Source: a virus | Virus record (IMG/VR): IMGVR_UViG_3300017482_000059 | DNA: 29,662 bases | Direction: 5' to 3' (one strand) | In this document: positions 12,699-13,046 of the stretch, piece after piece | Layout of the letters: every line of letters starts with the position of its first letter | Position numbering within the stretch: the stretch's first letter is position 1 | Position numbers and translations under genes: made by a program | The notes under the pieces: generated by a model | The model's input: the letters and a program-made list of their open reading frames with translations, nothing else | The model's database searches: none | Told to the model about the DNA's origin: nothing

Positions 12699-13046
12699 AT
12701 GATTTATATATTGGACGCCTTCAGTCCGAAAATGTTAGATAAGACCCCGATAAAGGTAATAATAGATAAAGTGATGAGAGATGAGTTCTGTGAGAAAATA
12801 GAAATATATTCAGAAACAGGTGACCTGAAAATTGCATTAAGTAGACGGTCTTCAGCACAAATAATAAACACTTTATGCGGTACCCAGCTCGAGAGCAATA
12901 AGGCGAGGATAACATTAAGTGAAGGTGATAAGGCGTTCATAATATTAACGAAAGTTAGGCTGGACGACGAAAAACCGCCTACGGACGAGCAAATAAAGCA
13001 AATGTATAAGGACGGCAAAATCGAACTATATGAAGTAGTTTTATGA
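12699..13046 (+). CDS. acrIII-1: AcrIII-1 / DUF1874 (STIV B116-like) homolog with catalytic GH motif replaced
   Basis: YILDAFSPKML..P.KVIIDK..R.EFCE.I, QIINTLCGT, N.ARITL..GDK, RL, Y..GKI..YEV match the family as recalled; SIGH is replaced by ALSR. GAGGTGA RBS at 12684-12690 favours ATG 12699 over GTG 12687. Confidence 0.8.
   Translation: MIYILDAFSPKMLDKTPIKVIIDKVMRDEFCEKIEIYSETGDLKIALSRRSSAQIINTLCGTQLESNKARITLSEGDKAFIILTKVRLDDEKPPTDEQIKQMYKDGKIELYEVVL

Follow-up and report, generated by a model that had tools for sequence, protein, structure and literature searches.

Viral ring nucleases are described in the literature as highly conserved at the residues used for cleavage, and His47 of AcrIII-1 (SIRV1 gp29) has been termed 'absolutely conserved' (10.1101/778746). 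A gene at positions 12699-13046 (+) of a 29,662-nucleotide stretch of viral DNA (IMG/VR record IMGVR_UViG_3300017482_000059, the whole of which is called the window here) encodes a homolog in which this histidine is gone. An earlier note, made from the sequence alone, had considered the product a possible sponge for cyclic tetra-adenylate (cA4) or a neofunctionalised variant. The question raised by this locus is whether such a protein is the remnant of a ring nuclease, a ring nuclease with a different chemistry, or a protein that has kept the fold and pocket for another purpose.

The open reading frame encodes 115 amino acids plus a stop. Alignment to the DUF1874 HMM, a check that had been proposed in the earlier note, matched the product to PF08960 (STIV_B116-like, formerly DUF1874) with 41.5 bits and an E-value of 1.6e-10, the gathering cut-off being 26 bits, over profile positions 1-96 of 101. 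The colinear similarity to AcrIII-1 claimed there is borne out by full-length matches to STIV B116 (2j85; E 1.8e-26, 42% identity) and SIRV1 gp29 (2x4i and 6scf; E 1.8e-21, 38% identity). The AF2 model, a monomer prediction from a 76-sequence family alignment, has a mean pLDDT of 96.4. Foldseek comparison gave TM scores of 0.91 with B116 (2j85; rmsd 1.4-1.6 A), 0.80 with the gp29-cA4 complex (6scf), and 0.81 with the Crn2 domain of Csx1-Crn2 (8y7g), confirming the B116/gp29-type fold of a five-stranded sheet and three helices. By both HMM and fold the protein belongs to the DUF1874 fold family, and it presumably forms a homodimer with the basket-shaped pocket typical of that family. A PADLOC match to Csx16 (E 0.0025) is weak and was taken as distant fold kinship only. 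No second, canonical DUF1874 gene was found in the window when all six frames were searched with the family HMM.

A Shine-Dalgarno-like GAGGTGA (12684-12690, +) placed 8 nt ahead of the ATG at 12699 marks this ATG as the likely start of the gene; the other candidate, a GTG at 12687, falls inside that motif. In the public gene call (P0002, 104 aa) the start is too far downstream, so that the first strand of the fold is lost.

The catalytic centre of the family has been defined by work on two proteins. In gp29, cA4 is contacted by R85, R66, N8, Q81, S11, T50, S49, and N13, and through main-chain atoms of L92, I69, and N8; the H47A mutant loses more than 2500-fold of the activity, yet still co-crystallises with cA4 (10.1101/778746). 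In Csx1-Crn2, the scissile phosphate is held by N451 and R514 (N8 and R66 of gp29), while H495 (H47) serves as general acid, its imidazole being positioned by E536 (E88); alanine mutants of these four residues each show marked loss of activity (PMC11317161). Arg85 is the lid lock, and the roles of Arg85 and Glu88 in the lid are taken from both studies (10.1101/778746; PMC11317161).

All four of the centre residues defined by mutagenesis are swapped in the window protein. Between GH and the NxLCGT motif, a conserved sequence eight residues downstream, the alignment with known homologs needs no gap, so the register is unambiguous: 'naiGHdst' or 'nsiGHdst' of the homologs is aligned with 'ialSRrss', and catalytic His47 falls on Arg49 (codon AGA, 12843-12845, +). 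Asn8, the scissile-phosphate contact that corresponds to Asn451 of Csx1-Crn2, is Asp6 (codon GAC, 12714-12716, +), and Arg66 (Arg514) is Lys68 (codon AAG, 12900-12902, +), with 'kNRv' aligned to 'sNKa' (Asn67-Lys68). The lid loop Arg87-Leu88-Asp89-Asp90 (12957-12968, +), in which 'qRLee' is aligned with 'vRLdd', keeps the lid lock and its neighbor as Arg87-Leu88, while Glu88 is replaced by Asp90 and Gly89 by Glu. The replacements of (N)SIGHDST by IALSRRSS and of NR by NK, as well as the retained RL motif, had all been read correctly in the earlier note, but the change to the centre is wider than noted there, comprising N8D, H47R, R66K, and E88D. These are near-isosteric swaps: N to D is isosteric, and the type of charge is preserved in the other three (H to R, R to K, E to D). 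The three residues that mark AcrIII-1/Crn2 catalysis (His47, Asn8, and Arg66) are all absent.

Outside these four positions most cA4 contacts are retained. Ser11, Ser49, Ile69, and Arg85 of gp29 are kept as Ser9, Ser51, Ile71, and Arg87, and Thr50 is conservatively replaced by Ser52. The remaining contacts differ: Gln81 is Leu83, Asn13 is Lys11, and Leu92 is Pro94, which removes a main-chain NH contact. The catalytic histidine is lacking, as had been claimed, and the protein has no histidine anywhere. Cleavage by a relocated histidine, which the earlier note had set against its own reading, is excluded by this count; the His35 of the relatives is also missing here.

The substitutions are conserved among close relatives. 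A word-indexed search found about ten relative clusters at 70-75% identity, and four metagenomic loci (L001-L004) have a gene order in common with the window over many genes. The reading frame of the DUF1874 gene is intact in all relatives, and dN/dS ratios of 0.10-0.16 at dS of 0.26-1.5 (Nei-Gojobori) indicate strong purifying selection. The clade alignment has 59 invariant columns, and in the clade of about ten members D6, S9, R49, S52, N67-K68, R70, L83, and R87-L88 do not vary, while gp29 position 88 is Glu in eight of ten members and Asp in the window protein. The interpretation in the earlier note is thus supported in part: a functional, remodelled variant is well founded on a dN/dS of about 0.1 and a conserved clade. 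The "added Arg residues" described there fared differently from one another: Arg49 is invariant in the clade, but Arg50 is private to the window protein, its relatives having Glu or Gly at this position. The rim of the pocket (positions 11, 48, 50, and 54) is variable inside the clade.

The clade belongs to a larger group of at least 32 clusters defined by the residue at position 8 (gp29 numbering), referred to here as the Asp8 subfamily. An exhaustive HMMER search gave 79 representatives of clusters at 50% identity, and a profile search with the non-His sequences gave 34 clusters; residues were tabulated for 55 canonical sequences, each standing for one cluster at 50% identity, and for 32 members of the Asp8 subfamily. 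N8, G46, H47, R66, and R85 are invariant in the 55 canonical representatives. Position 8 is Asn in 55 of 55 canonical sequences versus Asp in 32 of 32 from the subfamily. Positions 46-47 are always Gly-His in the former, while the latter have GR or SR (the window's clade) or, in other clades, RY, RH, RR, RS, or YR, with Arg always present at one of the two positions. Position 50 is Thr in at least 95% of canonical sequences versus Ser in 31 of 32, position 66 is invariably Arg versus Lys or Arg, and position 85 is invariably Arg versus Arg in just 15 of 32. Glu88 and Gly89 (each at least 95%) and Glu96 (50 of 55) are canonical features of positions that are unconserved in the Asp8 subfamily. 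Position 75 is Asp in at least 95% of canonical sequences and in 30 of 32 from the subfamily. Across the Asp8 subfamily the floor of the pocket (positions 8, 11, 46/47, 50, and 66) is conserved in new identities while the lid positions drift, a pattern in keeping with a pocket still used for binding.

In a quick IQ-TREE analysis the Asp8 sequences fall in the crenarchaeal-virus part of the family, beside B116 and gp29. The Asp8 label requires two changes on this tree, versus a mean of 27.9 when labels are shuffled. A tree in which the 33 Asp8 rows are held together has a log-likelihood 48.8 above that of the free quick search, with a p-AU of 0.89; because the constrained tree scores higher, a single Asp8 origin inside the crenarchaeal-virus branch is compatible with the data, though not proven. 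The 'AIGH' sequence is kept in all of the cultured-virus homologs checked (STIV1, STIV2, SIRV1, AFV1 ORF116, SMV4, and an SSV), and the Asp8 type was seen solely in unbinned metagenome contigs. Scans for the genomic context of the other Asp8 clades gave no Asp8-type locus in IMG/VR or in GTDB genome contigs, and the metagenome scan returned just the window's own clade and canonical genes, not the other Asp8 clades.

The DUF1874 gene is third in a conserved putative operon, the order of which is conserved in L001-L004. The first gene (11338-12489, +) encodes a 383-aa ORFan without a match in Pfam, PHROG, or PADLOC, and the 11 clusters of this family all come from the same element family. The AF2 model of this protein has a pLDDT of 61 and gave no fold match in the PDB. 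At this pLDDT the model suggests three repeated modules of a beta-sheet plus two helices, and a weak internal repeat (DxxWxEWWTIYPH versus DDPEKRAWVVEPH, E 0.048) points to the same modular build. The second gene (12486-12647, +) is an extremely acidic ORF of 53 aa, rich in Glu and Asp with interspersed Trp, Tyr, and Phe. Counterparts of 56 and 55 aa lie between the 383-aa and DUF1874 genes in L001 (1279-1449) and L003 (1356-1523), respectively. In the window and L003, and apparently also in L001, the acidic ORF begins with a GTG that overlaps the preceding stop codon, which suggests translational coupling of the two genes.

A TTAAATA box (11298-11304, +) 34 nt before the ATG at 11338 is a copy of a promoter-like motif that recurs at a fixed distance upstream of about 20 or more genes in a listing of upstream regions. 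In the recurrent unit, an A-rich stretch and TTTAAATAC or TTTTTATAC precede the ATG by about 34-44 nt, often with a GACCnAAAATG or GGGGnnCAAAAATG leader after them; examples lie upstream of 3537, 4386, 5348, 9075, 10591, 11338, 17568, and 24548-29313. No such box was found within 75 nt upstream of the DUF1874 gene itself. Directly after its stop is a T-run (TTTTTATT; 13047-13054, +), plausibly an archaeal terminator that would end the operon.

Downstream, a 451-aa ABC/OLD-type ATPase gene (13073-14428, -) is convergent with the DUF1874 gene and syntenic in all relatives. It matches Pfam AAA_15/AAA_21 and, in PADLOC, PD-T4-4_A (E 5e-12) as well as the N-terminal parts of AriA and GajA; it is without an obvious nuclease partner and may serve the element in defence or counter-defence. 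In relatives a 168-aa ORF (L001 1916-2422, L003 1992-2498) without a Pfam or PADLOC match is located between the two genes, while a one-gene indel leaves the window with about 25 nt (13047-13072) in its place.

The window also encodes ParA, a ParB-like protein, a wHTH protein, an epimerase, and many ORFans, and it belongs to a hot-spring archaeal mobile element, with genes that fit carriage by a virus or a plasmid. Nucleotide-metabolism genes are carried as well: the large subunit of a class I/II-type ribonucleotide reductase with an ATP-cone (5934-8552, -), a dCTP deaminase-like protein (21530-22081, -), and a PNKP-type HAD phosphatase (26778-27248, +). The phosphatase is common to Acidianus tailed spindle virus (ATSV), as is a 351-aa protein (9383-10438, -; phrog_33543, E 2.6e-165) that is 64-66% identical to ATSV gp16 and to a protein of Sulfolobales virus YNP1. 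These are the only two genes in common with ATSV, and the element may be a virus or a plasmid; a megablast search of 11 kb against phages and plasmids gave no match. The element may be large, because a contig of 72,851 nt carries a copy of the 383-aa gene that is at least 90% identical. Two diverged paralogs (3649-4386, -, and 17568-18320, +) belong to the viral family phrog_6092 (E 5e-16 and 1e-32), to which no function has been assigned, and two small proteins (24470-24898, +, and 27645-27989, +) have sub-threshold matches to SWIM zinc fingers (E 0.0025 and 0.001) and sit within an array of small genes bearing the promoter motif.

The reading preferred here, at a probability of roughly 40%, is that the protein binds cA4 or a similar ligand and damps type III signalling as a sponge or a slow nuclease. 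The DUF1874 protein would be made from the third gene of an operon under the strong recurrent promoter of the element, and cA4, or a very similar cyclic oligoadenylate (cOA), would enter the pocket at the dimer interface. The kept residues (S11, S49, T50 as Ser, I69, and the lid lock R85 in gp29 numbering) would hold the rest of the ring, and an Asp6-Arg49 pair could sit on the phosphate. General-acid catalysis dependent on histidine would be impossible without His47, and the messenger would be sequestered or cut slowly, lowering type III CRISPR signalling for the benefit of the element. Binding without fast cleavage is plausible because the gp29 H47A mutant still binds cA4 in crystals. Retained binding is favored by the presence of the lid lock Arg and of most contacts outside the catalytic centre, and by the pocket floor, which with its Arg at 46 or 47 comprises the most conserved non-structural positions across the Asp8 subfamily. 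For a sponge, which would need to bind its ligand tightly without turnover and be highly expressed, this conserved floor and the strong promoter shared by the operon are indirect evidence. The site also looks rebuilt rather than abandoned, since the four substitutions conserve size or type of charge.

Several features weigh against this reading. A carboxylate at position 8 beside a phosphate could weaken cA4 binding unless paired with Arg49, and Q81L and L92P remove contacts. R85 and E88 are missing from other Asp8 clades, so the subfamily as a whole need not close a lid on cA4. No Cas10, CARF, SAVED, or other cas gene was found in the window, and a sponge needs stoichiometric expression. In addition, SIRV2 gp37 demonstrates that roles independent of nuclease activity are possible for DUF1874 proteins.

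Efficient cleavage by another chemistry is unlikely, although the swaps are not what random loss would produce: all four are chemically close and are invariant in the clade. In this scheme the leaving group and the pentavalent transition state would be stabilised by Arg49, which Asp6 and the Asp or Glu at position 90 would orient. The 2'-OH may have Asp6 as its general base, and Lys68 would stand in for Arg66. Glu/Arg pairs serve in this way in RNase T1-type enzymes. Other ring nucleases work without histidine, Crn1 using Lys and Ser, and the lid residue Arg87 is kept in the window protein. However, Arg is a poor general acid, H47A lowers activity more than 2500-fold, and N451A, R514A, and E536A are each defective. 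Elsewhere in the Asp8 subfamily, clades combine Arg at 46 with Tyr, Ser, or His at 47, and the subfamily therefore has no one catalytic constellation in common.

A role apart from nucleotides, with the scaffold binding protein or DNA, is likewise improbable. SIRV2 gp37 inhibits a host lysine methyltransferase independently of H47, its catalytically dead H47A mutant still pulls down SiL_1451, and the authors of that work argue that the roles of viral DUF1874 proteins extend beyond type III inhibition. The catalytic centre of the window protein is wholly replaced, and STIV B116 was reportedly first described as a DNA-binding protein. However, the SiL_1451-binding residues of gp37 (D28, R29, L98, and E102) correspond to M26, R27, K100, and K104 of the window protein, so that only one of the four is kept, and among the non-structural positions of the subfamily it is still the pocket floor that is most conserved.

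It is distinctly doubtful that the pocket has been retuned to a different ligand, such as cA3, cA6, a signal of CBASS or Thoeris type, or a phosphate-bearing metabolite, with the protein serving as inhibitor or sensor of another pathway. The altered contacts (N8D, Q81L, and L92P, plus N13K in the window protein), the variable rim of the pocket within the clade, and the unconserved lid residues across the Asp8 subfamily are all consistent with a change of ligand, but the fold and the size of the dimer pocket are essentially those of B116 and gp29 (TM 0.91 and 0.80), and no alternative signalling system was seen in the window. Decay of AcrIII-1 into a non-functional remnant, to which the loss of an 'absolutely conserved' histidine might point, can be rejected as extremely improbable given dN/dS of 0.10-0.16 at dS of up to 1.5, a frame intact in all relatives, 59 invariant columns, a model with pLDDT of 96, and conserved gene order.

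Extended from the window protein to the Asp8/Arg47 subfamily as a whole, a tentative proposal, against which the odds are considerable, is that a ring nuclease was converted once, within the crenarchaeal-virus branch, and then diversified, giving either the first cA4 sponge with a DUF1874 fold to be used by archaeal mobile elements or a His-independent Asp/Arg ring-nuclease mechanism. Because the His47, Asn8, and Arg66 features of AcrIII-1/Crn2 are all missing, the window protein should not be classed as a ring nuclease before it has been assayed. Viruses destroy the second messengers of type III CRISPR with enzymes for which AcrIII-1 is the reference, and metagenomic tallies of 'AcrIII-1' made by homology include proteins that are probably not fast ring nucleases. 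A conserved, selected, and diversified lineage with a swapped centre is also a natural experiment on the mechanism of ring nucleases, and can show whether mobile elements shift between degrading and sequestering cOA on one scaffold.

Among known systems, the closest are STIV B116 (2J85) and SIRV1 gp29 (AcrIII-1; 2X4I, 6SCF), with which the window protein has colinear full-length homology and the same fold. Ser11, Ser49, Ile69, Arg85-Leu86, the NxLCGT motif, and carriage by archaeal mobile elements are common to all three, but the window protein, unlike the other two, has Arg for His47, Asp for Asn8, Lys for Arg66, Asp for Glu88, Leu for Gln81, Glu for Gly89, and no histidine. The Crn2 domain of Marinitoga Csx1-Crn2 (8Y7G), from which the centre was mapped, also has the same fold (TM 0.81); it is cellular, fused to an effector, and canonical in its centre, while the window protein stands alone with four centre residues changed. 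Neither a sponge with the DUF1874 fold nor a description of a His-less DUF1874 lineage was found in the literature searched. Csx15 has been discussed as a possible cOA sponge, and by analogy the window protein may act in the mode proposed for Csx15 and for Acb2, Tad1, Tad2, and Acb4, sequestering a cyclic nucleotide rather than degrading it quickly, although the folds of these proteins are unrelated to DUF1874. The window protein belongs to an archaeal branch whose defining marks are Asp8 and an Arg at either 46 or 47.
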